DNA from: an uncultured Chloroflexia bacterium
GTDB lineage: Bacteria > Chloroflexota > Anaerolineae > JAAEKA01
Direction of reading: 5' to 3'
NCBI GenBank assembly: GCA_963707275.1
Contig: CAVPPH010000001.1
Location: forward strand, 92,625 to 156,624
Length of the DNA: 64,000 nt
Shown here piece by piece: positions 6,589-59,986 of the stretch (the first letter of the stretch is position 1; each line of letters opens with the position of its first letter). The notes below the pieces were generated by a model, which worked only from the letters and a program-made list of their open reading frames with translations, was not told the origin of the DNA and searched no databases. A program made the position numbers and the translations under genes.

Positions 6589-6683
<95 letters not shown>

Positions 6684-6775: not shown

Positions 6776-6865
<90 letters not shown>

Positions 6866-8356: not shown

Positions 8357-8465
8357 GTCGGTGCCTCCTGCTTGCTGTTGCTTATTGCGTACAGCGTATT
8401 GCTTGGCGGCGACCTGCTAGCTAAAGCAGATGCCTTGCCTTCCGAATACACAATACGCAATACGA

Positions 8466-36573: not shown

Positions 36574-36636
36574 TCTTTTTCCTCCTTCAATGAGCAGCGC
36601 TATGCGTCCAGCGCTACCGGTTCGTCTCTGTTGATG

Positions 36637-37323: not shown

Positions 37324-38210
37324 GCCTCTCGATATGCACCCAAGTCACGGTGCTTCAGAATGACGTTAAATCGCATGGCGCGAGCTTGTTCACAGACTTC
37401 GTCCAGCGATACACCTGTATCTGTGTATTCGGCGGCAAAGACAGGCTTGCCGGTGGCTACGAATGGTTCCATCTGTTCGCACCAGCCTTCCGCAAAGCAG
37501 CTTTCGGTCAGCGCCCAATCAAAGTATGGTAGCAAATCCGCCACTTGCTCAGCATCGTTCTTTAACCCGATGGATAGTCCGCGACTGTGGGCTTCTTCGG
37601 CCAGCCAGAGGTTGTACGCCAGTTGATCCTGATAGGTCAGAGGAAAACCGGTGTCGTTCAGATAGCCGTCGATGTTGTCTGGCTCGAGGCCATCATATCC
37701 CTTTGCCTGACATTCATCAAACCTTGCTCGCATGATCGGGGCCAGCAAGTCGATGCGCCGAATATCTAACCAGTTTTCCCCCGGCCAGCCAGCGTATTTC
37801 TTGCCGATGACTTCTGCGGGGAACTGGTCCCTGTCAGGTCGCCAGTCCTCCCAGGACCCCACGCTGATGTAACAGACCACCGACTGTCCCCGGCTATGCA
37901 AGGCAGCTACTGTGCTGGCATCGTTGTCGAACAGGTCGATATCGACCATCTCCGCGTCAAATGACAGGTCAAGCGCGTCGCCAAGTTGCCACTGCCAGGA
38001 TGTGTCTATAGACGGTCTCCACAGCGGTGTACGGCTCAACGCAGGCTCGATCGCTGCAGTTTGGGAGGGTGAAATTGCAGGCGCGACGACCTGAGCCAGT
38101 TCTGGTTTGGGTACTCCGTTGCCACTGGACAGGGCGTCAGGAGAGCTATCGGCACAAGCTGTGACCGCCAGCAGTGCGATCAGCAAACAGAAGTGCAAGA
38201 CAAGTTTCAC
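37314..38210 (-). CDS. GH114-family endo-alpha-1,4-polygalactosaminidase-like lipoprotein
   Basis: Lipobox LLAVTAC, then blocks typical of Glyco_hydro_114 as I recall them (..CYISVGSWEDWRPD.., ..NWLDIR.., ..GYDGLEPDNIDGY.., ..GLKND..). Confidence 0.6.
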   Translation of the reverse strand: MKLVLHFCLLIALLAVTACADSSPDALSSGNGVPKPELAQVVAPAISPSQTAAIEPALSRTPLWRPSIDTSWQWQLGDALDLSFDAEMVDIDLFDNDASTVAALHSRGQSVVCYISVGSWEDWRPDRDQFPAEVIGKKYAGWPGENWLDIRRIDLLAPIMRARFDECQAKGYDGLEPDNIDGYLNDTGFPLTYQDQLAYNLWLAEEAHSRGLSIGLKNDAEQVADLLPYFDWALTESCFAEGWCEQMEPFVATGKPVFAAEYTDTGVSLDEVCEQARAMRFNVILKHRDLGAYREACR

Positions 38211-38370
38211 TGAATCATCGTCCTGTTTCTACAAGTCACGTAACGAAAGAAGGACCCTATGCCGCGCTAGCGTCAAGGAGAGTGCATCATCGAACCGCCT
38301 ACCATCAGTTCAACGACCTGTGTACTCGCTGCGGAGAAGCCCGTACAAGTAATCTCCGTGAAACGATCCG

Positions 38371-38940
38371 TCAAGCGTTCTTCCTGTTTTCCCGCAGGTG
38401 ACCTTCGCGTCGAAAACCGCATCGTTCGAGAAGGCGCCAACTGCGGGTGTTGTTCTCGTTGCAATCACTTGTCACCCGATGCGCACCCAATTCGATGAAC
38501 AATGCTTCTAAAACGCGATTGACGGCCTCGGAGATGACCCCCTTGCCCTCGTAGTTGGTATCAGCCACGTAGCCGATGACGAACTCCGGCAAATCCCGGT
38601 TGGTCGGCGCGACGTACACTTGCCCTGCCCATTCGCCGGTTGCTTTGTCAAAGATGCCAACGAAGAAGCGAGTACCGCAATGCCAATCCTCTGCCAGTTG
38701 CCTGACGATGGCTTCGGCGTGTTCCTCGTCCTTCAAGTAAAGTATGACATTGCCGGACTCGAACCTGGCCAAATGCTCCCGATTGCGGATGCCAGCCGCA
38801 TAATACATCGGGCCATCGCCCGACTCGTAGCGTCGCAGGTGCAGCCGTTCGGTATCCATGTGCTCAGGAACCGTTGTCAACAGGGGATTATCCATATTTC
38901 CATCGTCATTCCAGTCTTCCGACATTGATCGATTGGGCAT
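38371..38940 (-). CDS. GNAT-family N-acetyltransferase (RimJ/RimL-like)
   Basis: 189-aa ORF with ..YEGKGVISEAV..L...F...GAHRV.....NN..S.RLLE.CGFRREG.. acetyl-CoA-binding core. Confidence 0.65.
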   Translation of the reverse strand: MPNRSMSEDWNDDGNMDNPLLTTVPEHMDTERLHLRRYESGDGPMYYAAGIRNREHLARFESGNVILYLKDEEHAEAIVRQLAEDWHCGTRFFVGIFDKATGEWAGQVYVAPTNRDLPEFVIGYVADTNYEGKGVISEAVNRVLEALFIELGAHRVTSDCNENNTRSWRLLERCGFRREGHLRENRKNA

Positions 38941-39001
38941 TGGCTCTCATCCCAAGCGCTGAGGCCAGCCGAGCGAGCCTACCGGCGAACGCGAGCGATG
39001 C

Positions 39002-39787
39002 TTATGGGCGTGTTCTCATTGACTGGTAGCCTGGTGTCAAGGCGCATCGAAGAAGATTGTTCAACGGCCCATCCTCGCCCACACGATGTCTGAAGGCCGG
39101 CACGATTGTCTCCAATCGGTGTATCTCGCCCTCGCAGTACGCTTGCAGAACTGGATCGACCGCTACCTCGCTTTGCTCGGCTGACTGGCTCTTGGCAATG
39201 TAAAGCCGTTCGATGGCTTGCCTCAGTTCAGTGGATGTCACGAGCCGGTCAACGCTGGTCCAGATACTCATTGGCACCACAGTATCGGTTTTCTCTATCC
39301 AGTTGACGGCCAGCAGCATTCGCAGGGCATAGAAGATCTTCTTGACGTGCATCCGGTCCGCTTCTATCGCCATTGAAAAGTAGTGGCGAGCAGCCTGAAA
39401 ATAGTGCTTCCCGCATAGAAAAGGTGAAAAATAGTCCGGCGCCAGTTGCCACAACGACCGAACTACATGATGCGGTTCCACATAGATAATCGGTGAGCTC
39501 ATCCATTCCAGCAGGCGTGCATTCGATCGTTGAAAAAGTTGCAGTGTCTTCCGAAAATCCCAACCCAGCAAATCAAGCTGATCAGATATGGGAAGCTCAA
39601 TCACGTCCCGCACCGGGTGAATTGACAGATACGTTTCAGGTTGTCGAAGATAGATGAAGCGGACATCGTAATCGCTGTCCACAGACGAAAACTGCCAGCC
39701 TCTGCTGCCGGACTCGCAGGCGAACAGGATGGAAACCTTTTCCACTCTGGATACTTCATCCAGCTTTGTGAGTATCGCTTCTCGCAT
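39002..39787 (-). CDS. predicted nucleotidyltransferase (Pol-beta superfamily, PF10127/RlaP-like)
   Basis: N-terminal ..ACESGSRGWQFSSVDSDYDVRFIY.. matches the GS..(D/E)xD NTase signature of this family. 261-aa intact ORF. Confidence 0.5.
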   Translation of the reverse strand: MREAILTKLDEVSRVEKVSILFACESGSRGWQFSSVDSDYDVRFIYLRQPETYLSIHPVRDVIELPISDQLDLLGWDFRKTLQLFQRSNARLLEWMSSPIIYVEPHHVVRSLWQLAPDYFSPFLCGKHYFQAARHYFSMAIEADRMHVKKIFYALRMLLAVNWIEKTDTVVPMSIWTSVDRLVTSTELRQAIERLYIAKSQSAEQSEVAVDPVLQAYCEGEIHRLETIVPAFRHRVGEDGPLNNLLRCALTPGYQSMRTRP

Positions 39788-39886
39788 TGGTTCGTGAACT
39801 CATACTGTGCTGGCACACACCGGCCAATCTGACCCGGCAGGGTCGCGGTCAACGGCTTTGGCTGCAAAGAACAAGCCGCAACGTGC

Positions 39887-40708
39887 CTACGATACTCCGC
39901 TTTCGCTGATCGGCATCCCTTCGCCCATCCATTCGATCAACGAGCCGTCGTAGACCGATACATTTTCGTTCCCGGCAATCAAATGCGCGATTGCATTGAC
40001 CGTCGCGGCGATTCCGCCGCCGCAGTACGTGATGATCCGGTCGTGCTGCGATGCTGCTTGCAGGCGAGATACGAACTCGTCGTCGGGCACTAACGCATCC
40101 ATTCCCTGCATCAGGTCCAAGGCTGAAACGAACGACGAGCCCGGTATGTATACGCCGCCATACATTTCAACGGGCAGCGTATATTCCGTGCAGACGCTGC
40201 TGTCGTCCATGGCTTGCAGGACTTCTTCCTTGCTGGCGAACATGCCCGGCCTGAAGTGACCCGCAAATTGCGCGCCTGCATAGTGGCAGGGTTCCTGTTC
40301 CAGTTTGCCACCTGCCTTTACCCAGCCAGCAAGCCCGCCATTGAGGACGCGCACGTTGTTGTGGCCGGCATAACGGAGAATCCACCAGGCGCGGGTTGCG
40401 GCAGGAAACACGCCGGATGCATAGAAAACGACTTCGGCATCCTGTGAAATCCCAATGCGGCCAATCTGCTTGACCAGGTCAGTTTCAGACGCGACCATAT
40501 ACTCATACTCGCTGCCCGGATCAGAAAAATCGGCGTGGTCAAAAAAGGCGGCGCCGGGGATGTGACCCGCGAGGTATTTCTCGTAGGCAGTTGTCGGGTC
40601 TGCTTCGCTTCTGAAAAACAGGATCGTGGCATCGTAGATGCGAATGTTTGGGTCGTCCAGTTTCGCCAGCAGCTCATCTGCTTCAATGAAGATGCTATCT
40701 CTGTTCAC
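39887..40708 (-). CDS. two-domain rhodanese sulfurtransferase (thiosulfate/3-mercaptopyruvate type)
   Basis: Tandem rhodanese domains (..GHIPGAAF.. and ..GVYIPGS..) with the active-site loop YCGGGIAAT in the second domain. Confidence 0.7.
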   Translation of the reverse strand: MNRDSIFIEADELLAKLDDPNIRIYDATILFFRSEADPTTAYEKYLAGHIPGAAFFDHADFSDPGSEYEYMVASETDLVKQIGRIGISQDAEVVFYASGVFPAATRAWWILRYAGHNNVRVLNGGLAGWVKAGGKLEQEPCHYAGAQFAGHFRPGMFASKEEVLQAMDDSSVCTEYTLPVEMYGGVYIPGSSFVSALDLMQGMDALVPDDEFVSRLQAASQHDRIITYCGGGIAATVNAIAHLIAGNENVSVYDGSLIEWMGEGMPISESGVS

Positions 40709-40726
40709 CGTTCGATCTCCTTTAAT

Positions 40727-41398
40727 TCACCGCAAGCCCAGTTTCTTCGCCAAATCCTGGCGATTGACACCGTTCGACATTGTCACGCCGGCATCCAGGA
40801 TCGCCTGCCTGGCCTTCTCTACCGACCAATCTTTGGTGCTGTCCAGCCAGCCGGCTGGCGCCCAATCCACCACCCGGCAGTAGCGGTTGACCGGCCAACC
40901 GTAGAATTCGCCCTTGGCGTTGACTTTGCGATCGTTGCCATCGACCGTGATGTAGTACTCCTGCTGTAATTGCTGAATGGCTCTATCCACCGCGCTGGCG
41001 CCCTGCTTGCGGCTGACGCCCATGGCTTGCCGCACCTGGCTGATGTTGAGTATGCTCTTTTCTTCAAAAAGCTGCCAGAGTTGCCAGGTTGTTTGGCTGA
41101 CTGTTCCGCCAGCCCAACGTTCGGGCATGGCAAGCGTTGGATGGAAGGCGGCATAGAAAATCGGGTACATGCGCTCCGTGACAAAGCCCTTGTTCCCACC
41201 CAGAATGCAGCCATAGGCCAGACGCTTCTCTTCAGCGACGCGATCTTTCCAGCGCCAGGGGTCGGTCTCGAGACCGGTGTGCCATTGACTTTCTGTGGTC
41301 TCGTCGCCCAGAGATGGCAAGCCAGGCAAGAGGGGCGACAGCGTCATGAAGCCCAGCGAGTTCGACGCGGGCAACAAACTCCTCGTAGGTGGTCAACA
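40727..41398 (-). pseudogene. hypothetical winged-helix protein (resembles proteins annotated AlkZ-related), frameshift near 41350
   Basis: MLTTYEEFVARVE.. (frame of 41232..41504) joins ..GFMTLSPLLPGLPSL..QWHTG.ETDPWRWKDR..EKRLAYGC.. (40727..41377). The family assignment is from memory of similar sequences only. Confidence 0.3.
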
Positions 41399-41400
41399 TT

Positions 41401-41832
41401 TCAGTCCTCGATTGCCTCAATTCCAAGTTGCCGAAGCCGCTCAAGGCCGTCCTGCATGGCTTTGAGCTCTTCAGGGGAATGCCCCTGCCAATCTGTGACC
41501 TCACCCGTGACTCGCAGCGGGTCGCGAGTGCGGTATGACTTGGTTGGATTCCCCGGGAACTTCTTGTCCGTCAGATTGGGGTCATCTTCAATCGGGCCGG
41601 TCGGTTCTACCATGTAGATTCTGCCGGGTCCTTCGCCGACGGCCAGCTCGGCTCCCCAGGTGGCCGCATCCAGGGTGGCGGTCAGATAGACGTAGGTCGC
41701 CTTCTTCCGCTTACCGTAGTTAGAGTTATAGCCAGGCTCGATCAGGTCCCCCGGCTTCAGGTCGGCCTTCGTGCCATGGTAGAACTGCTGCGAACTCAGG
41801 TCATCAATGGCTGTCATCGGCTCACTCCTCAT
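41401..41832 (-). CDS. arr: NAD+--rifampin ADP-ribosyltransferase (Arr)
   Basis: FYHGTKADLKPGDL.., ..ATWGAELA.., ..IYMVEPTGPIEDDPNLTDKKFPGNPTKSYRTRDPLRV.G.V.DW.GH..E.. is collinear with Arr-2/Arr-ms over essentially the whole length. The more likely start is the ATG at 41817, after GGAG. Confidence 0.9.
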   Translation of the reverse strand: MRSEPMTAIDDLSSQQFYHGTKADLKPGDLIEPGYNSNYGKRKKATYVYLTATLDAATWGAELAVGEGPGRIYMVEPTGPIEDDPNLTDKKFPGNPTKSYRTRDPLRVTGEVTDWQGHSPEELKAMQDGLERLRQLGIEAIED

Positions 41833-42046
41833 TCTGTTCGGCTACACTACTCATGATGCTGTCCTCCATTGGCAGGTCGCGCGCCGGTCTCGACGGGGAG
41901 TGGGTTGGCCTGAGTTCCAGTTCCATCTAGCGGAATAAGAGCTTCATGTGGCGCGCTGGCGTCAAAGCGAGAACGGTGTCGGCAGAACCAACCTTCAAAT
42001 CGCCAACAACGTAGCGGCCCACTTCAACGAATATGTTCGCTAGCCG

Positions 42047-42854
42047 TTAGAACGGAATGGTGTCTGATTCCCGTACACTGCCCGCGATCTGTTCAGGTGT
42101 CGCCATCGCTTGCTCAATAGACTGGATGAACCGTATTAATGCACACACGTGATTGAAGATCAACAGGCTTTCATCGTAATTGAGAATGGGATTGTCATGC
42201 GCGAAGCTTTGGTTGTTGCGCACATGATTAAACGATTCAAGCGTCGATATTGATGACTTGAGAATGCGTTCAGCCATTTCGGATTCGAGATGACCGCTTG
42301 ACCGCAAGTACTTGATATATTCGCCAAACATGCTGTGTAGCGGCTTGCTGCGGACAACCGTGAGACCGTGCTCCCGGCAGAGTGTGCTCACATATTTGAC
42401 AACAAATGTGTGAAGGTGATCCAAACCAGTTTCGGGCTCATTGTTTTCGATCGAATCTCGTACCGATTTCGCCAGTGCCTCAAACGTCCGATCATCGGTT
42501 AGCGATTGAATTACATCCAATTCGGTGACCGGAGCGGAATTCAGGAGACGCGTTGCGATCTGGCGACCGATTGGAACGAGTGATTGGTCAACTGTACCCA
42601 CCATTGTGGCGTATTCAGCCATTTCGCGGATGAGAACACCGACGACGTGGTTGGGCTCGATTTTCCAAAATTGCCGCAGGCGGTTTGCCTTCGAGGAACT
42701 TGCGTAGTCTGTATTTAGTATCGTCGATGTCGCGGTGAACAGCATCGGCAACGAATTCTTGGAACGTCCGGTTGGAGAAATCGAGAACGTATCCACCGCC
42801 CATTTCGAACAGCTTTTCCAGTTGGTTCTTTTCGACAAAGGTCAGGTCAGACAT
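42047..42854 (-). pseudogene. abortive-infection family protein (AbiJ-like N-terminal domain plus Abi_C C-terminal domain), frameshift at about 42700-42840
   Basis: N-terminal MSDLTFVEKNQLEKLFEMGGGYVLDFSNRTFQEFV.. (42615..42854) and C-terminal ..LESFNHVRNNQSFAHDNP.. (Abi_C-like R-N...AH motif) in 42047..42838. The region looks AT-richer than the flanks. Confidence 0.5.
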
Positions 42855-42936
42855 TCATGGGGCCTCTGTACGCCAGAGAGGTTCGGTTTGAGAGCAGATA
42901 CACGCGAAAAGGCGTCAAGATGCTTGTGGTAGCGAA

Positions 42937-43167
42937 TCAGGCCGACCCGGGTGGCCGAATGGCTTCCCGGTCTTCCTTCATGTAGACCATCAGAAACAGG
43001 TCGGCCGGCATCTCCACGACCATATCCACGTCGCTGGTATCCGTGGCCTGGTTGCGGGCGACGGAACCGAAAACCCCCAGACGGGTGACGCCGTACCGGG
43101 CAGACATTTCCTGTTTGTGGGCGCTGAGGGCCTCAAGGACTGCTTCTCGTTGCATGGTTTGTTTCAA
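42937..43167 (-). CDS. MNT-type nucleotidyltransferase (antitoxin-like), possibly C-terminally truncated
   Basis: ..RLGVFGSVARNQATDTSDVDMVVEM.. is the GS-x10-DxD minimal NTase signature. No HEPN/DUF86 partner ORF is adjacent. Confidence 0.6.
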   Translation of the reverse strand: MKQTMQREAVLEALSAHKQEMSARYGVTRLGVFGSVARNQATDTSDVDMVVEMPADLFLMVYMKEDREAIRPPGSA

Positions 43168-43231
43168 CGGCCCGATCGGGCGGTCACGTTGCCGTCGAGT
43201 GAACTCAAGCTGTACCTGTTATTCTTCGCTC

Positions 43232-43612
43232 TCAATCAGACACAAAGATCAGCTCGTCAATCTCACGCAGAACCTCGCTGAGATCCGGGGCTTGAGCCGG
43301 CTCGACGACCAAGCCAACATGTTTATGGTGGGGATGAGTTGGGATGTTTGGATAGTGCGGAGCGTTATCGTAGCGAAAGATCAACTCCCCCGACGCGTCT
43401 TGATAGTGGTATGAGTAGCGCAGTTTCGTTATTTGCCCATTGCGCAGGATGATGACTTCGCCCAATTCTAACAGCGAGCCATCGTGGTACTTCAGCCGTC
43501 CCGTGATTGTGCCCCGCTCGTTGGATCGATTATCAAAGACGAGTTGTTCAACCTCGATATATCCCCGCGAAATGACGGTATCGTAGAGGCGCTGCAAGTA
43601 GCCATTTACCAT
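43232..43612 (-). CDS. DUF6516/TumE-like toxin-antitoxin family protein
   Basis: 126-aa ORF with ..LRYSYHYQD..G.LIFRYDNAPHYPNIPTHPHHKH.., which resembles the YDN..H.H core I recall for this family. Confidence 0.4.
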   Translation of the reverse strand: MVNGYLQRLYDTVISRGYIEVEQLVFDNRSNERGTITGRLKYHDGSLLELGEVIILRNGQITKLRYSYHYQDASGELIFRYDNAPHYPNIPTHPHHKHVGLVVEPAQAPDLSEVLREIDELIFVSD

Positions 43613-43663
43613 CAGACCACCACAACCGCCTCGGTCAATTGGCTGGCAATTGTCTGCTTGGCC

Positions 43664-43909
43664 TCAGAGATACGATTCGTATTGTCCGGCCCACATGATG
43701 AAGGGAAAGTCATCGCCCATTTCACCGCGCATGAAACGGGCGTAGAAGACGTCGCTGCCCATGCCATATCTGCCTTCAAACGCAACTAATTCTCGCAGCA
43801 GGCCCAGGATATCATCCAACGTCGAACTTCGCGCCGAAGTCTGTTCCAGTAGTGCTTTGAAATCAGCAAGGTTGAGCAGATTATCTTTCGTAATCACGAT
43901 CTTTGTCAT
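43664..43909 (-). CDS. small hypothetical protein, upstream partner of the DUF6516 gene (candidate antitoxin)
   Basis: 81-aa ORF starting MTKIVITKDNLL.. at 43909, 52 nt upstream of the next start. A promoter lies just upstream. No family recognised. Confidence 0.3.
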   Translation of the reverse strand: MTKIVITKDNLLNLADFKALLEQTSARSSTLDDILGLLRELVAFEGRYGMGSDVFYARFMRGEMGDDFPFIMWAGQYESYL

Positions 43910-43980
43910 AACACGACCCGTTTCCAGTTGTAACCAGCTAGCGGCCAATCACACGGCAATTTCCAGACGTTGACGCTGGC

Positions 43981-44009
43981 ATTCTATCATCAGCACAGAC
44001 TGTCGTCAA
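43981..44009 (-). promoter_or_regulatory. sigma70 promoter for the two-gene TA-like unit (TTGACG, 17 nt, TAGAAT)
   Basis: The minus strand reads TTGACGacagtctgtgctgatgaTAGAAT, about 70 nt upstream of the ATG at 43909. Confidence 0.4.
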
Positions 44010-47304: not shown

Positions 47305-47341
47305 GGTTGGAGTTGCAGGTTGCAAGTTGCGGGTTGCAGGC
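47305..47341. repeat. GTTGCAG-type heptamer array at the 5' end of the regulator gene
   Basis: ggttggagttgcaggttgcaagttgcgggttgcaggc. 25 of 26 nt are identical to 18908-18934. Confidence 0.7.
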
Positions 47342-49217: not shown

Positions 49218-49983
49218 ATGCGACTCAACGGCAAAGTAGCTCTCATCACCGGCGGAGCGGCCGGCATTGGCAAGGCGACGGCGCAGCGCTTTCAGGAAGA
49301 GGGCGCGACGGTCGTGATCTGCGACGTCAACGAGGAGGCGGGCGAGGCAGCAGTCGCCGAGCTCGGTCTGGCAGCGTTCTACAAGGTCAACGTGGCCGAC
49401 CGGCAGGACGTGCAGCGCTGGGTGGACGACGTGGTCGGCTCGCTTCGGCCGCATCGATGTGCTGGTCAACAACGCCGGCGTGTTGCGCGACGGCCGGCTG
49501 GTGGTGGTCAAGGACGGCGAGCTGGTCAAGCAGATGCCCGAGGCCGACTGGGATCTGGTGATCGGCGTCAACCTGAAGGGCGTCTTCAACTGCACGCAGG
49601 CCGTCGCGCCGGTCATGATCAAGCAGGGCAGCGGCGTCATCCTCAACGCCAGCAGCATCGTCGGCCTGGACGGCAATTTCGGCCAGACCAACTACGTGGC
49701 CACCAAGGCAGGCGTCATCGGCCTGACCAAGGTCTGGGCACGGGAGCTGGGGCGCTACGGCGTGCGCGTCAACGCCGATCGCCCCCGGCTTCACGCTGAC
49801 CGAGATGGTCCTAGCAGATGCCGGAGAAGATGCTGGCCGAGATGGTCTCCCACGTGCCGCTGGGCCGCATGGGCCAGCCACGCGACATCGCCAACGCCTA
49901 TCTGTTCCTGGCATCGGACGAAGCCAGCTATATCTCCGGCGTAGGTGCTGCGCGTCGATGGCGGAATTGTTGTCGGAACCTGA
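49218..49983 (+). pseudogene. 3-oxoacyl-(ACP/CoA) reductase, FabG-like SDR, about 3 frameshifts
   Basis: ITGGAAGIGKA, NNAGV, ..[27 protein letters not shown].. (YxxxK) and the C-terminal ..[28 protein letters not shown].. lie in shifted frames. Confidence 0.8.
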
Positions 49984-49984
49984 G

Positions 49985-50028
49985 AAATGGTTGATGGTGA
50001 ATTCGGTGAATTGGTCAATGGTTAATGT
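49985..50028. repeat. GGTGAAT/AATGGTT-type heptamer array (left arm of an inverted pair)
   Basis: aatggttgatggtgaattcggtgaattggtcaatggttaatg. Positions 50005-50023 are complementary (18 of 19) to 50437-50455. Confidence 0.7.
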
Positions 50029-50062
50029 CAGAAGGCGATGATCATGGAAAGGAGGCGGGACT

Positions 50063-50430
50063 GTGGCAAAAGGTGATGATCTAGAAGATCGGTTGATTGA
50101 TTTTGCGGTGCCAGGTGATTGACATCAGTGCGACCGGTTGCCCGATACAGCGATCGGGGCGCCATGTTTCGAGGACAACTACTGCGAAGTGGTTCTGCTG
50201 CGAGCGCCTCATTATGGTGAAGCACGAGGTGCCGAAAGCAGACGGGATTTCGCCCATAAGCTGCGAATCGGTGCTGAAAGAGCTAAACGAATCGCGCGTG
50301 TGGCTGAAGATTGCGTTGAAGGCAAAGATGCTGCCGGTGGAGGAGCTACAGCCGGTCTCTGCGCGGAGTGCGAAGCGCTATGCCGCATTCATCAGCGCCA
50401 GCATCCGAAACCGCAATCCCGCGGCCAATC
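50063..50430 (+). pseudogene. four-helix-bundle protein (23S rRNA intervening-sequence protein / Avd-like, PF05635-type), at least 2 frameshifts
   Basis: GTG at 50063 after AAGGAGG. LEDRLIDFAV.., ..HYGEARGAESRRDFAHKLRI.. (frame of 50138..) and ..VLKELNESRVWLKIALKAKMLP.. (frame of 50097..) are collinear with this family. No stop separates it from the downstream ligase frame. Confidence 0.6.
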
Positions 50431-50436
50431 GCGATC

Positions 50437-50474
50437 AACCATTCACCAATTCACCATTCACCATTCACGAATTT
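50437..50474. repeat. ATTCACC-type heptamer array (right arm of the inverted pair)
   Basis: aaccattcaccaattcaccattcaccattcacgaatt. Confidence 0.7.
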
Positions 50475-50483
50475 TCTGCCCTC

Positions 50484-52020
50484 ATGCACGCTGCCGACTT
50501 GCTCACCAACCGCTCTCGTTTGACGCCCGACCGCGAGGCGTTGCTTTTCCTGGATACGGGAGAGCGCTTCTCCTACGGCGAGTTGAACGCGCGCTCGTGC
50601 CGCGCCGCCAATTACATGCGCGCGCTGGGCGTCCAGCCAGGCGACCGGGTGTCGATCCTGGCGCAGAACAGCGTTGTCTACCTCGACCTGTTCTACGGGC
50701 TGGCGAAGATCGGCGCGATCTTTGCGCCGCTGAACTGGCGGCTGACCGCCGCCGAGCTGACCTACATCGTCAACGACTGCGCGCCGGCGGTGCTGATCTG
50801 TAGCGCCGAGTTCGCCGGCGTGCTGGCGGAGATGCGGCCTGAGATCTTCGTCGAACATCTGATCAGCCTGGAAGGCGCAGTCATTCTCGGTGCGGAGAGC
50901 TACGAGGAGGGTGTCGCGGCGGCGTCAGCGATGGAGCCGGAGCGCCCGCCACTGGACGGCGACACGCCCTACTGCATCCTCTACACCTCCGGCACCACCG
51001 GCAAGCCGAAAGGCGCGGTCCTGCCGCATCGCCAAGTTCTGTGGAACTGTGTCAACACGGTGGTGAGCTGGGGGCTGTCAGAGAATGACGTGTCGCCGGT
51101 GCTGACGCCGATGTTTCACGCCGGTGGGCTGTTCGCCTTTCTGACGCCGCTCTTCTACATCGGCGGGCGGGTGCTGCTGGCGCGTGGTTTCGATGCCGAA
51201 CAGTCGTTGCGCGCCATCGTCGAAGAGCGCTGCACGGTGATCCTCGGCGTGCCGACCCTGTTCCAGATGTGGCTGGATACGCCGTATTTCGCCGAGGCAG
51301 ATTTCAGCCACGTGCACTTCTTCATCAGCGGCGGCGCGCCGCTGCCCGTGCCGCTGGTCAAGGCGTGGCGGGCCAAGAAGGACGTGGTCTTCCGCCAGGG
51401 CTACGGCCTCACTGAGGTCGGCCCCAACTGCTTCAGCATGACCGACGACGAGTCTTTCGTGAAGGTCGGCTCGGTGGGCAAGCCGATTTTCCACAGCGAG
51501 ATGCGGCTGGTGAACCCGGAGACCGGGCTGGGCGTGCCGGTTGGTGAGACGGGCGAGCTGCTGATCCGCGGCCCGCACGTGTGTTTGGGCTACTGGCGTA
51601 ACCTGGAAGCCACTGCTGCTGCGCTGCGCGATGGCTGGTTCCACACCGGCGACATGGCGCGGGTGGACGAAGACGGCTTCTTCACAATAGCCGGCCGCTT
51701 CAAGGACATGATCATCAGCGGCGGCGAGAACGTCTACGCCGCCGAGGTCGAGAACGTCTTCCGCGACCATCCCGCCGTGCAGGAGGCCGCACTGATCGGC
51801 ATTCCCGACGAGAAGTGGGGCGAGGTCGGTCTGATGGTGGTGGTGCTGAAGCCGGGCCAGACGGCCAGCGAGGCAGAGCTGCGCGATTTTTGCTACACCA
51901 GGCTGGCGCGCTACAAGGTGCCAAAACGAGTCGTGTTCGTCGATAGCTCTGCCCTACTCGCCTTACGGCAAGGTGATGAAGCAGGAGTTGGTGAAGCAGT
52001 ACGGCATACAATACGAGTAA
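50484..52020 (+). pseudogene. AMP-dependent acyl-CoA synthetase/ligase, one frameshift near 51945
   Basis: Starts MHAADLLTNRSRLTPDREALLF... Contains YTSGTTGKPKG (A3), ..GYGLTE.., ..TGDMARVDEDGFF.I.GR.KDMIISGGENVY.. and ..KVPK.V.F... The C-terminus ..LPYSPYGKVMKQELVKQYGIQYE is in a shifted frame. Confidence 0.85.
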
Positions 52021-52090
52021 TTCGTAACTCGTATTGCGCAGCCAGATGGTCTACTGAAAGTTACGCATTACGCAAGCACGCAATACGCAC
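52009..52090. repeat. CGTATTG/TACGCAA-type short repeats with a perfect 10-bp hairpin
   Basis: caatacgagt-aattcgta-actcgtattg, followed by gttacgcattacgcaagcacgcaatacgcac. The same motif family is present in the serS leader at 8380-8468. Confidence 0.65.
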
Positions 52091-52091
52091 T

Positions 52092-53098
52092 ATGACACGC
52101 TACGCCACAATCATCGGCACGGGACGCTACGTCCCGGAGATCGTACACACGAACGAGATGCTCAAGGAGCAGGTCAGCGTCGTCAATCCCGACCTGGCGA
52201 AGGTCGTCGACACCTTCCAGGACAGTTCGGGCATCCGCGCTCGCCGGCTGGCGCCGCGCGACTGGGCCGCGTCGGACATCGCTGTGCGCGCGGCTGAAGA
52301 TGCGCTGCAAGCGGCCGGCATCACAGCGGAGCAGGTGGACATGATCCTGCTGGGCACCGACACGCCCGACTACATCACGCCGGCCACATCGACCGTGGTG
52401 CAGCACAAGTTGGGCGCGGTCAACGCCGGCACGTATGACATCGGCTGCGCCTGCGCGTCGTTTCCCACCGGGATCGCCACGGCTGCCGGCCTGCTGGCCA
52501 CCAATCCGTGGATGAACTACATCCTGGTGGTCGGCGTCTACATGATGAGCAAGCTGGCCGATCCGACCGACGTGACCTCGTTCTTCTACAGCGACGGCGC
52601 CGAGCGCGGCGGTGATCGCGCCGGACACGAAGCCGGGCTATCTCAGCTCCGCATACCTGGCCGACGGCGCGTTTCACCAGTACTGGGGTCTGTACGCCGG
52701 CGGCACCTACGAGCCGGCCAGCGTGGAAGCTGTGGAGGCCGGTCGCACCAAGGTGCGGCTGCTGCAGCGCTACCCGCCCGACGTCAACCACGAGAACTGG
52801 CCGCGGATCGTGCGCATGCTGGCCGAGCGGGGCGGGTTCGCGGTACAGGACATCGACCTCGCCATCTTCACCCAGGTGCGTCTGCCGTCCATCAAGCTCG
52901 TGATGGAGGATCTGGGCCTGCCGCTGGAGCAAGACCCACTGGGTGATGGACAAGTGGGGCTACACCGGCTCGGCCTGCATCGGCATGTGCCTGGACGACG
53001 CCATCGACCAGGGCAAGGTGAAGTCGGGCGATCTGGTGACGCTGGTCGGCTCCGGCGTCGGCTACAACTACGCCGGCGTGGCGCTGCGGATGCCGTGA
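52092..53098 (+). pseudogene. KASIII (FabH)-like enzyme lacking the His and Asn of the catalytic triad, two frameshifts (about 52600 and 52935)
   Basis: MTRYATIIGTGRYVPE.., Cys motif DIGCACASF. FabH PHQAN corresponds to FTQVR and GNTSAAS to GYTGSAC in my by-eye alignment. The C-terminus is ..LVGSGVGYNYAGVALRMP. Confidence 0.7.
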
Positions 53099-53107
53099 AT
53101 GAGAGCC

Positions 53108-53142
53108 AGAGTTGCCAACTTTTCCGAAAAGTTGGCAACTCT
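53108..53142. promoter_or_regulatory. 35-bp perfect palindrome between KASIII-2 and the first hydrolase (operator or RNA hairpin)
   Basis: agagttgccaacttttc-c-gaaaagttggcaactct. The 17-nt arms are perfectly complementary. Confidence 0.5.
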
Positions 53143-53155
53143 CCACGAGGTGACA

Positions 53156-54228
53156 ATGACCATTCCAACCCTGCCGGGCATCACGCCCCAGACGATCACC
53201 ACCGACCGCATCACGACGCGCGTGCTCGTTCACCGGACCGGACGACGGGACGCCGGTGCTCTTCCTGCACGGCAACTCCTCGTCGGCGACCTGGTGGGAG
53301 GAGACGATGCTGGCGCTCCCGGCCAACTACCGCGGCATCGCACCTGACCAGCGCGGCTTCGGCGACGCTGAACTCGACAAGCAGATTGACGCAACGCGCG
53401 GCGCGGGCGACTGGGCCGACGACGCGCTGGCTCTGCTGGACACACTGGGCATCGCCCAGGCGCACCTGGTGGGCAACTCGCTGGGCGGCGTGGTGGTCTG
53501 GCGGCTGCTGGCCGACGCGCCGGAGCGCTTCCTGCAGCGTGACCGTGGTCGATCCCGGCTCGCCCTACGGCTTTGGCGGCACCAAGGACGCCGACGGCAC
53601 ACCCTGCTACGACGACTACGCCGGCTCGGGCGGCGGACTGATCGGCGCGCCGGTGGTCGAGGCAGTCAAGTCAGGCGACCGCAGCGTGGAGAACCCCTTC
53701 GGCTATCGCAGCGGGCTGCGCCGGCTGGTGTTCAAGCCGCCCTTCGTGCCGGCGCGCGAGGAGGACTTGCTGTCATCGTCGCTGTCGATCCACGTCGGCG
53801 ACCAGGAGTTTCCGGGCGACAAGGTCATGTCACCCAACTGGCCGTTCGTGGCGCCGGGCGTCTGGGGCGCTGCCAACGCGCTGTCGCCCAAGTATGTGAC
53901 TGAGGCGGTCGAGCGGATGATTGCGGCGGAGCCGAAGCGGAGCATCCTGTGGGTGCGCGGCAGCGATGACCTCAGCGTGTCCGACAACGCCGCCGCGGAC
54001 ATGGCGACGCTGGGCGCGCTGGGGTTGGTGCCGGGCTGGCCGGGCGCCGACGTCTTCCCGCCGCAGCCGATGCTGAAGCAGACGCGTGCGGTGCTCCAAC
54101 GCTACGCGGCGGCCGGCGGCTCGTACCGCGAGGTGGTCATCGACGACGCCGGCCACGTGCCGTTTATCGAGAAGCCGGACGAGTTCAACGCGGTGTTTCA
54201 TGCGCACCTGGCGGTAAGCGCCCCGTGA
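53156..54228 (+). pseudogene. alpha/beta hydrolase (Ser nucleophile), paralogue of 55269..56333, two frameshifts (about 53230 and 53540)
   Basis: ..VLFLHGNSSSATWWEE.., nucleophile elbow HLVGNSLGG, ..SPYGFGGTKDADGTPCYDDYAGSGGG.. and ..GHVPFIEKPDEFN... It is collinear with the intact paralogue over the whole length. Confidence 0.75.
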
Positions 54229-54380
54229 ATGAATTCACGGTCTGGCAAGGCGAAGCATGCTGAAGCAAGCTGCCGGAATCTGGCTGCATCCGCAGCCTGC
54301 TTGAGCAGGCTTTTCGAGTACCAGACGCCGGATTCATCCGGCGGGCCACGGCCGAACGAGTGCTACGCAGAGAATGAGCA

Positions 54381-55272
54381 ATGTCGAGAAAACCACCACC
54401 AATTCCTGAACGCAGCGGCTACTTGTCCGTCGAAAACGGCACGCGCCAGGTCTACTGGGAGTACTTCGGCCACGGCGACCGCGAGGTCGTGGTGATGCTC
54501 AACGGCGTGGCCATGTCCACCCGCGGCTGGTATCGCAACCTGCCCGAGCTGCAGCCGGACTACGACGTGCTGCTCTACGACTACCTGGGACAGGGCCGGT
54601 CGTCGCAGGAGGACGAGCCGTACTCACATCGACCATTTCGCCGAATACCTGGTGCGCATCATGGACGAGCTGGGCATCGAGCGCATCCATCCGGTGGGCG
54701 TCTCGTACGGCGGGTTCATCGCTGCCGAGCTGGGCCGGCTGTTCGGCGACCGGCTGCACACGCTGACCTTGTCGGGCATCCTGCTGACCCGCGAAGACGC
54801 AGTTCCAGATGTACCAGGATCTGTCGCTGACCTTCTACACGTCGCCCGACCCGGCCTTCGAGATCTACACGCAGTACATGTACGAGAAGATCTTCGGCGA
54901 GGCCTTCTGCCGGCGCATCTACGGTGACAAGATGGACCGGATGCGCCAGGGCTTCTTCGACGACTACCACGGCAAGGAGTACTGCCTGATCCGGCTGACC
55001 GAGGCGCAGAACCCGTTCTTTCGACCGCATCGACGGCGATCCCGACGCTGTACCGCGGCGTCACGACGCCGACGCTGGTCCTGACCGGCGATCAGGACCG
55101 CGCCATCCCGCCCTGGCAGCAGGCCAAGCTGCTGGACATCCTGCCCAACGCGCGCCAGATCATCGTGCCCGGCAGCGGCCACATGACCTACATGGAACGG
55201 CCGGACATCTTCTGGCCGGCAGTGAGAGCGTTCTTTGCAGCCAAATCTGTATCAGGAGTTTCCGAACCATGA
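54381..55272 (+). pseudogene. alpha/beta hydrolase (second type), at least 3 frameshifts
   Basis: ..VVVMLNGVAMSTRGW.., nucleophile elbow PVGVSYGG, and the C-terminal ..PTLVLTGDQDRAIPP....L...LPNARQIIVPGSGHMTYMERPD.. in a shifted frame. Its stop overlaps the next ATG (ATGA). Confidence 0.7.
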
Positions 55273-56333
55273 CGACTATCACACCTCTTGACGGCGTTTC
55301 TTCGCAGATGATCCAGACGAGTCGCCTGAACACCCACGTCTTGACCAGCGGGCCGGACGACGGTGTTCCGGTGGTGTTTCTGCATGGCAACTTCTCTGCC
55401 GCGACCTATTGGGAAGAGACGATACTGGCGCTTCCGGCCGGCTTCCGCGGCATCGCCCCCGACCTGCGCGGCTACGGCTGGACTGAGGACAAGCTGATCG
55501 ACGCGACGCGCGGTATGCGCGACTGGGTGGATGACCTGGCGGCGCTGTTCGAGGCGTTGTCCATCGAGAAGGCGCATCTGGTGGGCTGGTCGCTGGGCGG
55601 TGGCGTGGTGTTGCGCTTCATCGCCGATCACCCGGACAAGGTGCTGTCGGCGACGCTGATCGCGCCGGTGTCGCCCTACGGCTTTGGCGGTACCCGCGAT
55701 GCAGAGGGCACGCCCTGCTACACCGACTTTGCCGGTTCGGGCGGCGGCACGGTCAACCCGGAGTTCGTCAAGCGCATCATCGCCGGCGACCGCGGCACGG
55801 ACGATCCCAACTCGCCGCGCAACGTCATCAACGCCTTCTACTACAAGGCGCCCTTCCGGGCCGCGCGCGAGGAGGATTTCCTGACCGCCGCGCTGGCCGA
55901 GAAGATGGGCGACCAGCGCTATCCCGGCGACATGACCGCCTCGGAGAACTGGCCCAACGTCGCACCAGGTGTATGGGGTCCCATCAACGCCGGCTCGCCC
56001 AAATACGTGGCCGGCGACGCCGAGGCGCTGATTGCCGTCCAGCCCAAGCCGCCGATCCTGTGGATCCACGGCAGCGACGACCTGATCGTCGGCGACCTGT
56101 CCTTCTTCGACTTCGGCGCGCTGGGCAAGCTGGGCTACGTACCAGGCTGGCCGGGCGAGGACATCTACCCGCCGCAGCCCATGATCAGCCAGACGCGCGC
56201 CGTGCTGGAGCAGTACGCCGCGGCCGGCGGGCAGTATCGCGAGGTCGTCATTCAGGACACCGCCCACGGTCCGCATATCGAGAAGCCGGCGGAGTTCAAC
56301 GCGGCGTTTCATGGGCTGTTGCGCGGCTGGTAA
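55269..56333 (+). CDS. alpha/beta hydrolase (Ser nucleophile), intact paralogue of 53156..54228
   Basis: 354-aa ORF: ..VVFLHGNFSAATYWEE.., HLVGWSLGG, ..SPYGFGGTRDAEGTPCYTDFAGSGGG.. and ..AHGPHIEKPAEFN... Confidence 0.8.
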   Translation: MTTITPLDGVSSQMIQTSRLNTHVLTSGPDDGVPVVFLHGNFSAATYWEETILALPAGFRGIAPDLRGYGWTEDKLIDATRGMRDWVDDLAALFEALSIEKAHLVGWSLGGGVVLRFIADHPDKVLSATLIAPVSPYGFGGTRDAEGTPCYTDFAGSGGGTVNPEFVKRIIAGDRGTDDPNSPRNVINAFYYKAPFRAAREEDFLTAALAEKMGDQRYPGDMTASENWPNVAPGVWGPINAGSPKYVAGDAEALIAVQPKPPILWIHGSDDLIVGDLSFFDFGALGKLGYVPGWPGEDIYPPQPMISQTRAVLEQYAAAGGQYREVVIQDTAHGPHIEKPAEFNAAFHGLLRGW

Positions 56334-56378
56334 TCAGTCATCAGTTATCAGTTATCAGTGGACAGTAATAGGGTAACT
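56331..56378. repeat. ATCAGT-type heptamer array (left arm of an inverted pair)
   Basis: taatcagtcatcagttatcagttatcagtggacagtaat... Positions 56333-56360 are complementary (about 26 of 28) to 56899-56926. Confidence 0.7.
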
Positions 56379-56424
56379 GCGGTTTTGGTGCTCTGTGGAA
56401 GAAAGGGATCAGTGGTATTGCAAA

Positions 56425-56916
56425 ATGACACGACTCGCCCATGCCTTGAGCTATCGAGAGTTGATAGTGTATCAGAAGGCGAGGGACCTTTCGAGAGAGT
56501 TGTTCCATATCTCCAAATCTTTCCCGCGCGAGGAGATGTATTCGCTTACTGATCAGCTTCGACGGTCCTCTCGATCGGTAGGAGGACAAATTGCTGAAGC
56601 CTGGGCGAAGCGGCGCTATGAGAGGCATTTCGTCAGCAAACTCACTGATGCTGACGGCGAGCAGCAGGAGACGCAGCACTGGATTGATACGGCGCTGGAT
56701 TGCGAATACCTGTCTTCCCAACAACGTGATGAACTGATCGGAAAATGCGAGGAGATCGGACGCCTTCTGGGCGGCATGATTGCCAAAGCCGACCGCTTCT
56801 GTGGGAATCCTCTGCTGCCCCGCAACTTCGCGAACCTGAAATCGAGTACTATGTGGATGATCACGCCTCATTCTTCAGTGATCCAAACGAGATCCCAACT
56901 GGTAACTGATAACTGA
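56425..56916 (+). CDS. four-helix-bundle protein (23S rRNA intervening-sequence protein / Avd-like, PF05635-type)
   Basis: MTRLAHALSYRELIVYQKARDLSRELFHISKSFPREEMYSLTDQLRRSSRSVGGQIAEAW.. is the hallmark N-terminal half of this family. The ORF tail (after about 56825) reads on into the repeat array, so the true stop may be masked. Confidence 0.8.
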   Translation: MTRLAHALSYRELIVYQKARDLSRELFHISKSFPREEMYSLTDQLRRSSRSVGGQIAEAWAKRRYERHFVSKLTDADGEQQETQHWIDTALDCEYLSSQQRDELIGKCEEIGRLLGGMIAKADRFCGNPLLPRNFANLKSSTMWMITPHSSVIQTRSQLVTDN

Positions 56917-56942
56917 CGACTGATCACTGATAACTGATCACT
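56897..56942. repeat. ACTGAT-type heptamer array (right arm of the inverted pair)
   Basis: caactggtaactgataactgacgactgatcactgataactgatcac. Confidence 0.7.
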
Positions 56943-56954
56943 TTCAGGAGCCCT

Positions 56955-58509
<1,555 letters not shown>

Positions 58510-58511
58510 AA

Positions 58512-58577
58512 CAGAGACGAAAAAGGGAAACAAGGGAAAAGAGGGAAATCGGAGCGTTTCCCGGCTGTTTTCGTCCT
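58512..58577. repeat. purine-rich AAGGGAA-type repeats closed into a hairpin
   Basis: gacgaaaaagggaaacaagggaaaagagggaaatcggagcgtttcccggctgttttcgtc. The outer arms are gacgaaaa / ttttcgtc. The motif family is the same as at 8771-8840. Confidence 0.6.
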
Positions 58578-58588: not shown

Positions 58589-59861
58589 ATGACTATGACC
58601 CAAAGAAAACTCGGCCGCGGCGTGGCAGTCGTCGGGGCCGGCATGAGCCAGTTTGGAACGTTTCCCGAGAAGGCCACGCGCGATCTGTTCGTCGAGGCCT
58701 TTCGCGAGCTGCGCGGCATCCGTGGACAAAGGACTGGACCCGCGCGACATCGAGGCGCTGTTCATCGGCAACTACAGCAGCGACCTGTTTGAGCATCAGG
58801 GCCACACGGCGCCGATCATGGCTGATTGGGTCGGGCTGACACCGCGGCCGGCGGTGCGTATCGAGGACGCCTGCGCCAGCAGCGGCGTGGCGCTGCGGCA
58901 GGGCATCATGGCGGTCGCGTCAGGGCTGCACGACGTGGTGCTGGTCGGCGGCATCGAGAAGATGAGCAACCTGCCGACGGCCGAGGTCACCGACACGCTG
59001 GCAACGGCGGGAGATGTGCTCTACGAAATACCGGCCGGCTTCACCTTCCCCGGCTTCTACGCCGCGATCGCCATCGGCCTACATGGCGCGCTACGGCGCG
59101 ACGCCCGAGGCGCTCCTTCGGGTCGGCATCAAGAACCATGAGAACGGTGCGCTGAACAGCAAGGCGCAGTTCAACGTCTCCATCGGCGGCATCATGCAGG
59201 CGCCGCCAGGCCAGCGCCGGCAAAAAAGGGCCGTCCGGTGCCGCAGTGGTCCGACGAGATGGCGTTCCTGCAGGACGACGTGTACAACCCGATGATCGCC
59301 TGGCCGCTGCGGCTGTTCGACTGCTCGCCCATCACCGACGGGGCGGCGGCGCTGCTGCTGGTATCCGAGGAGATCGCCGCCAACTTCAGCGACACGCCCA
59401 TCGCGATCATCGGCACCGGCCAGGCCAGTGACCGGGCGCTGCCCAACCGTCCCGATCTGACCAGCCTGGGCGCGGCGCGCCATGCCAGCCAGCAGGCCTA
59501 CCAGATGGCCGGCGTGACGCCGCAGGACATCAAGATCGCCGAGGTGCACGATTGCTTCACCATCGCCGAGATCGTCGCGACCGAGGATCTGGGGTTCTTC
59601 GAGCCGGGCCAGGGCTACGTGGCCGCCGAGGAAGGGCTGACGGCGCGCAACGGGCTGCGGCCGGTCAACACGTCGGGCGGGCTGAAGTCGAAGGGCCACC
59701 CGGTCGGCGCATCGGGCGCGGCGCAGGTGATCGAGGTCTGGAAGCAGATGCGCGGCGAAGCCGGCCAGCGCCAGGTCGATCGCGACGTGGACATCGCCCT
59801 GACCCACAACGTCGGCGGCACCGGGCAGACCTGTGTGGTGCACATTTTTGAGCGGCGGTAG
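58589..59861 (+). pseudogene. thiolase-like protein of the SCP-x / DUF35-associated type, at least 3 frameshifts
   Basis: ..VAVVGAGMSQFG.., ..IEDACASSGVALRQG.. (Cys), ..FDCSPITDGAAALLL.., ..EVHDCFTIAE.. (His) and ..NTSGGLKSKGHPVGASG.. are collinear across ORFs 58589.., 58653.., 59014.. and 59238..59861. Confidence 0.8.
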
Positions 59862-59970
59862 TCGGTGATCAGTAACCAGTTACCAGTAACCAGTAATCAG
59901 TGAACAGTTGATGCGTCACAGATCACAGATCACAGATCACTGACAACTGATCACTGACAACTGATCACCG
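59862..59970. repeat. long array of CAGT-type heptamers, CACAGAT x3, then the inverted ACTGA-type arm
   Basis: gtgatcagt aaccagt taccagt aaccagt aatcagt gaacagt .. cacagat cacagat cacagat cactgac aactgat cactgac aactgat cacc. The two halves are mutually complementary. Confidence 0.75.
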
Positions 59971-59986
59971 GATCCAGGGAGCAACA

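Follow-up and report, generated by a model that had tools for sequence, protein, structure and literature searches.

PF05635 genes packaged between inverted heptamer arrays in the intercistronic gaps of a Chloroflexota operon

We analyzed a 64,000-nt stretch of DNA from an uncultured Chloroflexia bacterium (GenBank assembly GCA_963707275.1, contig CAVPPH010000001.1, positions 92,625 to 156,624; hereafter the window, 62.5% G+C). One co-directional operon in this window encodes a KAS III, a short-chain dehydrogenase/reductase (SDR), AMP-ligase 1, a KAS III, three alpha/beta-hydrolases, AMP-ligase 2, a thiolase and further proteins. The operon is interrupted by two small PF05635 genes, gene 1 between SDR and ligase 1 and gene 2 between a hydrolase and ligase 2, and each of them is enclosed by tandem 7-nt arrays in inverted orientation. 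By analogy with the intervening sequences (IVSs) of 23S rRNA, we consider it probable (roughly 60%) that both features are copies of a widespread hairpin cassette, a PF05635 unit that would be transcribed by read-through and processed by RNase III. The two cassettes consist of the following parts.

Positions 49982-50026, plus strand: left (5') arm of cassette 1, tandem GGTGAAT/GGTCAAT/GGTTAAT heptamers, beginning on the stop codon TGA (49981-49983) of the upstream SDR gene.
Positions 50063-50433, plus strand: cargo gene 1 of cassette 1, a four-helix-bundle gene (PF05635/TIGR02436) that belongs to the 120-aa subfamily B.
Positions 50434-50476, plus strand: right (3') arm of cassette 1, ATTCACC-family heptamers, ending 7 nt before the ATG (50484-50486) of AMP-ligase 1.
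Positions 56330-56369, plus strand: left arm of cassette 2, ATCAGTN heptamers (CAGT family), beginning on the stop codon TAA (56331-56333) of the upstream alpha/beta-hydrolase gene.
Positions 56425-56909, plus strand: cargo gene 2 of cassette 2, a PF05635/TIGR02436 gene of the ~150-160-aa subfamily A with the conserved motif ...DADGEQQETQHW...
Positions 56897-56942, plus strand: right arm of cassette 2, AACTGAT/TAACTGA heptamers in 6.6 copies, ending 12 nt before the ATG (56955) of AMP-ligase 2.

The assignment of both genes to PF05635/TIGR02436, made in the initial annotation from the letters alone, was confirmed by Pfam and NCBIfam matches above the curated cut-offs. Gene 2 scored 107.8 bits with PF05635 (E 4e-31, cut-off 33.8) and 97.8 bits with TIGR02436 (E 4e-28, cut-off 24) and is 95% identical to the protein P0001. 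It carries one frameshift near 56811-56820, and because of it the window protein was absent from an exact look-up. Its end, placed earlier at 56916, had to be corrected to the stop codon TGA at 56907-56909, inside the right arm. Gene 1 starts with the GTG at 50063 and is preceded by the ribosome-binding site AAAGGAGG. Rebuilt across its frameshifts, it scored 44.0 bits with PF05635 (E 3e-11) and 54.0 bits with TIGR02436 (E 2e-14), against the same cut-offs of 33.8 and 24, and it is 86% identical to the intact protein P0121. That gene 1 is frameshifted was borne out by alignment with the intact 120-aa orthologues (L082-L084), which revealed about 9 insertions. Its 370 nt contain about 11 extra bases, all of them insertions, a higher density than in its neighbours, which have about 1.2% gap positions against a close relative (L001). 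The gene is either a pseudogene in decay or a run of errors in the sequencing. The window assembly has many errors, with frameshifts in many conserved genes (for example 52094-53098, 53157-54228 and 54381-55260). Its closest relatives are metagenome-assembled Caldilineales/Anaerolineales genomes; we refer below to L001 (GCA_041391245.1, about 87% DNA identity to the window) and L168 (GCA_020634615.1, hydrolase protein 93% identical to that of the window).

The arms of both cassettes are complementary. Positions 50005-50023 pair with 50437-50455 at exactly 18 of 19 positions, as originally described. The pairing described for cassette 2 is also real, but its register was off by one, since 56332-56359 pairs with 56898-56925 at 25 of 28 positions, and 56330-56359 with 56898-56927 at 27 of 30. 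A repeat finder recovered the arms of cassette 1 (49982-50026 versus 50434-50476) over 22 nt at 91% and those of cassette 2 over 37 nt at 81%. Tandem Repeats Finder returned a period of 7 at 50438-50468, 56333-56359 and 56897-56942. In minimum-free-energy RNA folds the terminal array stem closes both cassettes (z -4.9 and -3.1). Both cassettes have the 23S IVS-type architecture, in which terminal inverted repeats form a stem and its loop contains the PF05635 ORF. As noticed before, the two stems use different heptamer families, GGTGAAT/ATTCACC and ATCAGTT/AACTGAT, because each cassette belongs to a different protein subfamily. The setting is indeed a protein-coding operon: Rfam detected no rRNA anywhere in the window, Rfam 15 gave no covariance-model match in 49900-57000 up to E = 1, and no conserved 23S motif occurs in any of the ~170 related loci that we fetched. 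A scan of 49700-57100, weakly informative for Chloroflexota, found no terminators and, on the plus strand, no promoter-like site; the single promoter-like site lay on the minus strand.

The packaging is a rule for the gene family and not a local oddity. For subfamily A, we used an alignment of gene 2 relatives to scan one genome per species; for subfamily B, gene 1 relatives were searched against metagenomes. The best 80 loci of each scan were kept, which is not a random sample of the family. In every locus the flank 5' of the start codon was compared with the reverse complement of the flank 3' of the stop codon, and inverted arrays were called at a Smith-Waterman score of at least 30. This was the case in 53 of 76 loci of subfamily A and in 63 of 74 of subfamily B, together 116 of 150, while shifted control windows in the same loci reached this score once in 266 and never in 116 comparisons (total 1/382). 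The question raised at the outset, whether other copies of the family have flanking inverted repeats, was thus largely answered with yes. Both arms had a period of 7 in 46 of 53 (A) and 52 of 63 (B) loci, and most other arms a period of 8. An array typically has 4-7 units; arm length is about 40 nt and arm complementarity about 84%. The subfamily A loci come from Chloroflexota, Verrucomicrobiota, Bacteroidota, Planctomycetota, Acidobacteriota, Lentisphaerota and Desulfobacterota, their proteins share 47-74% identity, and the same anatomy was found in independent NCBI, JGI, ENA and Logan assemblies.

One could argue that the two small genes lie by chance next to ordinary simple repeats prone to slippage, or next to errors of the assembly. 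The window assembly is rich in errors and frameshifts, and heptamer arrays are common in its intergenic DNA. Controls effectively refuted this explanation, to which we give almost no weight: among 400 random window pairs of the same spacing none had as many as 20 complementary bases out of 22, where the cassettes reach 20 and 21, only one of the 382 shifted controls came up to the observed complementarity, and the anatomy recurs in the independent assemblies and in finished Nostoc plasmids.

The geometry of the loci is narrow. Measured from the upstream stop codon, the left arm begins at a median of +2 nt (A) or -2 nt (B) and it stops 30 or 20 nt short of the start codon; the right arm begins at -1 or -2 nt relative to the stop codon and ends 18 or 15 nt before the next start codon. 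With a left arm that ends 20-30 nt before the start codon, there is no room for an own promoter. Both neighbours lay on the strand of the cassette in 40 loci of subfamily A and both on the opposite strand in 6; for subfamily B the numbers were 37 and 3. The Shine-Dalgarno sequence itself lies within the stem in several loci, with GGAGG pairing to CCTCC. Judged by sequence, the unit is composed of an arm, a ribosome-binding site, an ORF and a second arm, apparently promoter-less and an exact fit for an intercistronic gap. Of six other inverted heptamer pairs that lie 250-1100 nt apart in about 0.9 Mb of the fetched DNA, five enclose PF05635 genes, and no other cargo was found in heptamer hairpins of these loci, bar one probable chance pair. 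The family is large (8444 clusters at 50% identity in a representative library). It gave no tblastn match in 50,697 phage records, and no defence-system family in PADLOC matched P0001 or P0121. Some subfamily B cassettes (L090 2373-2500, also L094 and L105) have a complete extra hairpin, with a left and a right array, downstream of the outer left arm, so that a nested solo hairpin precedes the start codon.

Both cassettes of the window sit directly upstream of an AMP-ligase gene, which could suggest a special relation. This was not supported, as the same subfamilies sit upstream of many unrelated genes. Ligase-specific targeting is rejected because the neighbours vary (one is an aroA-like gene, identified by a conserved motif), and the common denominator of the sites is the intercistronic stop/start junction.

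We propose the read-through and RNase III model because the anatomy equals that of ORF-bearing 23S rRNA IVSs. In the IVS of Coxiella, a 28-bp terminal stem is cut by RNase III and the S23p ORF lies in the loop (PMC4990558). The 23S rRNA IVSs of Leptospira and Coxiella burnetii share with the cassettes the PF05635 cargo, terminal inverted repeats that form a 20-40 bp stem with the ORF in the loop, transcription by read-through from the host and a sporadic, horizontally patchy distribution. Sizes are likewise similar (ORF-bearing IVSs ~430-760 nt, cassettes ~500-620 nt). There are differences, too. IVSs are located in helix 9, 25 or 45 of 23S rRNA whereas the cassettes lie between protein-coding cistrons, and the base of the cassette stem abuts stop and start codons. 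The cassette stems consist of tandem 7-nt arrays. Stem cleavage by RNase III has been shown for IVSs (PMC4990558) and is proposed by analogy for the cassettes. Since they are not located in 23S rRNA, the cassettes are not IVSs; we regard them as PF05635 members that would work like IVSs and are very probably not parts of diversity-generating retroelements (DGRs).

According to this model, the cassette would be transcribed by read-through only, within the operon RNA, and the two arrays would pair to form a long stem. RNase III would then cut this stem, as in the ORF-bearing 23S rRNA IVSs of Leptospira and Coxiella, and the cut would free the four-helix-bundle mRNA and part the flanking cistrons. 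As the flanking cistrons would be separated by cleavage, the insertion would be tolerated. Stems of 22-37 bp are in principle long enough for RNase III. Three observations fit the model: cassettes are co-oriented with host genes, they leave no space for a promoter, and in some loci the stem extends across the Shine-Dalgarno sequence.

Several observations weigh against it, however. Arm mismatches have no sense-strand G-U bias (190 G-U-compatible versus 191 A-C-type for both subfamilies together; 115 versus 99 and 75 versus 92 for each alone). With such a symmetric mismatch spectrum there is no sign that selection acts on the sense RNA in particular, and the count does not discriminate between RNA and DNA models. 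A gene-less hairpin downstream of the thiolase gene (59862-59971) folds better on the minus strand (z -5.8) than on the plus strand (z -5.3). Six metagenomic loci and a copy on an Oscillatoria plasmid have direct instead of inverted arrays, which therefore could not form a stem, and the finished Nostoc plasmids, although the arrangement is the same, have G-rich/C-rich arrays with a period of ~8 nt. About 20-30% of the loci stay below the score threshold, some of them through coordinate errors at frameshifted ORFs or short arms. The cassettes encode no mobility enzyme, and both surveys rest on the best hits of their scans. A role at the DNA level or as a protein-binding site may coexist with the RNA model.

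That the genes could be Avd genes left behind by a degenerate DGR, after loss of the reverse transcriptase and the template/variable repeats, is suggested by the fold family. Avd is a DGR accessory protein that serves as a nucleic-acid and polymerase adaptor. The shared four-helix-bundle fold family, named already in the initial annotation, was supported by a match to bAvd (PF22296, E 2e-13) and by 48 bits with NCBIfam DivGenRetAVD, and related structures with five chains are a further likeness. The latter score (48.3 bits) is below the curated cut-off of 80, however. No RVT gene lies within 10 kb of a cassette in L001 or L168, no RVT_1 domain was present among ten window ORFs tested, a scan that was not exhaustive for the window, and no template/variable repeat pair was seen. 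Unlike Avd, the cassette protein is encoded by a gene that stands alone in its hairpin, and the same anatomy occurs in about 116 loci without a partner of reverse transcriptase shape. We consider a DGR remnant very improbable. A distant relative's version of the operon (L176 4544-5329) has an RVT_1 gene and a DDE transposase just 3' of an AMP-ligase, with no PF05635 gene adjoining.

The junctions carrying the cassettes record gain, loss and exchange. Orthologues of cassette 1 occupy the same junction between SDR and ligase 1 in many metagenomic relatives, with intact ORFs of 119-127 aa. The cassette 1 protein is under purifying selection; among these orthologues dN/dS is 0.05-0.22 and dS is mostly saturated. 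Empty sites in orthologous operons, which the initial annotation had asked for, were found at this junction in L001 and L168. The loss is exact there, leaving an overlapping stop/start TGATG: the filled junction reads AACCTGA, cassette, ATGCAC and the empty one ...AACCTGATGCAC..., with at most 1 shared nucleotide and no target-site duplication when filled and empty junctions are compared. When the first 340 nt of ligase 1 were used to build a neighbour-joining tree, L001 and L168 formed one clade nested among carriers, and L174, which also lacks cassette 1, is the outgroup. The simplest history is one gain and one loss. A recent insertion of cassette 1 is ruled out by the tree and the saturated dS; it is an old resident. 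At the hydrolase/ligase 2 junction, the subfamily A cassette 2 is common to the window and L001. At the identical junction, L168 and L169 have a different PF05635 gene, 33% identical over 57 aa, with GGTAGAT/ATCTACC arrays, a cassette swap. The exact presence/absence, the replacement between subfamilies and the patchy spread over phyla and cyanobacterial plasmids add support to the idea of a mobile IVS-like cassette.

These events raise the alternative of a mobile element that acts at the DNA level. The arrays would then be terminal inverted repeats for a recombinase acting in trans, or substrates of hairpin-dependent replication slippage, and pairing in RNA would be incidental; cassettes would be the autonomous-looking form and solo hairpins MITE-like derivatives (MITE, miniature inverted-repeat transposable element). 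The exact presence/absence and the swap, each at one junction, the gain and loss of solo hairpins among close relatives and the symmetric mismatch spectrum are in line with this explanation, as are protein identities of 60-74% between Chloroflexota, Verrucomicrobiota, Bacteroidota, Lentisphaerota and others and copies on conjugative cyanobacterial plasmids. Ralph and McClelland had proposed that the IVS ORF serves mobility (quoted in PMC4990558). Like MITEs and repetitive extragenic palindromic (REP) elements, the cassettes have short intergenic inverted repeats, many gene-less copies and presence/absence polymorphism. On the other hand, the cassette 1 junction has no target-site duplication, no transposase, integrase or reverse transcriptase lies beside the cassettes in L001 or L168, and the arms lack the sequence conservation expected of a recombinase site. 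They consist of variable tandem arrays that differ between loci, not of a conserved terminal sequence, and the cargo is a small helical protein, not a transposase or a REP-associated tyrosine transposase (RAYT); the target-site duplication and conserved terminal inverted repeat of DDE transposons and MITEs are absent. Cassette 1 stayed at one junction until dS was saturated, and the marked preference for the strand of the host genes indicates that transcription plays a role. Overall, an explanation at the DNA level appears rather unlikely.

Gene and heptamer family go together. Units of subfamily A are of the NNNCAGT/ACTGNNN type, with GAGGACN in one sub-clade, and those of subfamily B are AATTGTG/AATGGTG and CACAATT/CACCATT. 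When proteins were ordered by similarity, array types clustered with the protein and not with the host phylum. The two arms of one locus match each other better than arms taken from different loci (38.5 versus 19; 47 versus 24, p 3e-22), and orthologues at one junction reveal compensatory arm changes (GTGAAT/ATTCAC versus GTCAAT/ATTGAC). The pattern indicates that a gene is passed on and exchanged together with its arrays as a single unit, with an own heptamer family per protein subfamily. Profiles A1 and A3 match structure 2RLD (E 6e-13 and 1e-22), and A1 also matches 2GSC (E 3e-9), the structure of XCC0516; five chains are deposited for each structure.

The same coupling would be expected if the arrays were primarily putative DNA or RNA binding sites of the cassette's own pentameric protein, two site clusters in opposite orientation with complementarity as a by-product. 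The protein would autoregulate and act on solo arrays as an intercistronic regulon, and it may affect translation start. Apart from the joint distribution of protein subfamily and heptamer family, this explanation accounts for solo arrays near a cassette that share its family, including the spacer before ligase 3 in L001 and L168, for the loci with direct arrays, for the missing sense-strand wobble bias and for 4-7 units per array next to five chains in related structures. MacGregor had suggested that a TAACTGA-binding protein might itself be a mobile element (PMC4679880), and GGGAATC repeat #15 overlaps the start of XCC0516. Conversely, a single-strand binder could not read both arms, which are complementary and not identical, the heptamers vary widely within one subfamily and even within one array, and binding does not require the inverted orientation (116/150) or the exact stop/start geometry of the stem. 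As a primary function, binding sites seem doubtful to us; they are compatible with RNase III processing and do not exclude it. Co-inheritance, swaps and family-matched solo hairpins suggest that the pentameric protein recognizes the arrays and that solo hairpins are non-autonomous relatives.

Gene-less hairpins and other arrays occur at four further places in the window.

Positions 59862-59971, plus strand: solo CAGT/ACTG hairpin that fills the gap from the thiolase stop codon (59859-59861) to the next start codon (59987); position kept in L001 and L168.
Positions 6684-6768, minus strand: solo inverted hairpin of the CAGT family, located in the spacer that separates two tRNA genes.
Positions 52010-52090, plus strand: third-family heptamer arrays (CGTATTG / TACGCAA) in the spacer between ligase 1 and KAS III.
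Positions 57312-57361, plus strand: in-frame ACCATTC/ACCAATT-type array (QLTIHQLTNSPINHY) inside the ligase 2 coding sequence; its unit family is that of the cassette 1 right arm.

Across 115 loci, solo arrays near cassettes resemble the arms of their own cassette (p 7e-5). In the gap before the third ligase, the hairpin of L001 and the GGTAGAT units with which this gap begins in L168 each match the cassette family of that genome, and solo hairpins are gained and lost among close relatives. No relics of four-helix-bundle genes were found in the solo hairpins or elsewhere in the window (tblastn E of at least 0.2). The CGTATTG/TACGCAA arrays fold weakly in the window (z -0.5); L001 has a clear inverted pair (4658-4752), which L168 lacks. 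The in-frame array of ligase 2 is kept in L001 (10890-10935) with a 3-nt indel. Three tRNA genes are located at 6511-6865 on the minus strand, and the solo hairpin there thus lies within a stable-RNA operon.

Other repeats and neighbouring regions were noted as well. A T-box leader (8486-8731, minus strand, 95.6 bits) lies between an AATACGC array (8438-8482) and a purine-rich array with a period of ~9 nt, GGAAACAAG (8788-8842); a purine-rich array akin to the latter is located at 58510-58550, after ligase 2. The palindrome GAGTTGCCAACTTTTCCGAAAAGTTGGCAACTC (14-bp arms), which is not heptameric and has no T-tail, is located at 53110-53145 between KAS III and the first hydrolase and is kept in L168 (7733-7765). 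The gap upstream of the operon in L168 (2516-2930) contains GTTGCAG heptamers, similar to 47312-47340 in the window, and several copies of a longer inverted motif, GAACCGCGGAT...ATCCGCGGTT. In L170 (11060-11700, also L171) a PDDEXK_3 (PF13366) gene lies directly 3' of the orthologous hydrolase in the intercistronic gap, bracketed by inverted palindromic units of ~55 nt, two upstream and one downstream, that are not heptamers. A small ORF in a hairpin is common to this element and the PF05635 cassettes, whereas gene family and arm type differ. A low-G+C stretch of the window (~36000-44000, minus strand) encodes GH114, a GNAT acetyltransferase, RlaP, a rhodanese, an AlkZ-related protein and Abi_C. 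RlaP is an RNA-repair nucleotidyltransferase family, and the stretch may be a horizontally acquired or defence-type island.

Arrays of this kind have a history of their own, as intergenic elements for which no explanation had been given. Cyanobacterial short tandemly repeated repetitive (STRR) sequences are intergenic heptanucleotide repeats. The window arrays are tandem 7-nt, intergenic and present in at least 2 copies with related variant units, as such repeats are. Both kinds often lie directly 5' of start codons between co-oriented genes, sometimes form convergent inverted pairs and are patchy across phyla. TAACTGA repeats were described in Beggiatoaceae, Cyanobacteria and Bacteroidetes (MacGregor, 2015, PMC4679880), and literal TAACTGA units are present in the right arm of cassette 2. 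GGGAATC repeats of Xanthomonas form 70-75 inverted pairs per genome, and repeat #15 is listed on the start of XCC0516 in the supplementary table (Rehm, 2015, PMC4692102). Both papers treat the repeats alone and name no associated gene family (PMC4679880; PMC4692102). Unlike published heptamer repeats, the cassette arrays bracket a specific gene, and their heptamer family tracks the protein subfamily. In the full-text literature, with subscription journals outside the scope, we found no paper that links the PF05635 family to heptamer repeats. The coupling of the two thus appears to be new, while the IVS-type architecture and heptamer repeats were already known.

A more far-reaching possibility, which we put forward tentatively, is that PF05635 proteins and short-period hairpin arrays make up one unrecognized class of genetic element. 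Gene-less STRR, TAACTGA and GGGAATC arrays would then be non-autonomous derivatives, and rRNA IVSs copies that landed in rRNA. If true, the array-gene-array cassette would be the autonomous form, and its cognate pentameric protein would create, maintain or use the gene-less arrays. In addition, the stem would place the upstream stop close to the downstream start, which would let the operon be expressed despite the insertion. Material for such work is at hand in the crystal structures 2GSC (Xanthomonas) and 2RLD with cognate arrays that can be read from the genome, in published RNA-seq data of Xanthomonas and in the genetically tractable Nostoc and Bacteroides. For annotation, it follows that small genes inside operons can be insulated passengers and not pathway members, and heptamer packaging explains the frequent breaks of short-read contigs beside PF05635 genes. 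Three puzzles have so far been separate: the role of the widespread PF05635 "23S IVS / S23p" proteins outside DGRs, the origin of rRNA intervening sequences, and the excess of intergenic heptanucleotide repeats in cyanobacteria, Xanthomonas, Beggiatoaceae, Bacteroidetes and, here, Chloroflexota. If gene and arrays are one unit, these would become one testable problem.

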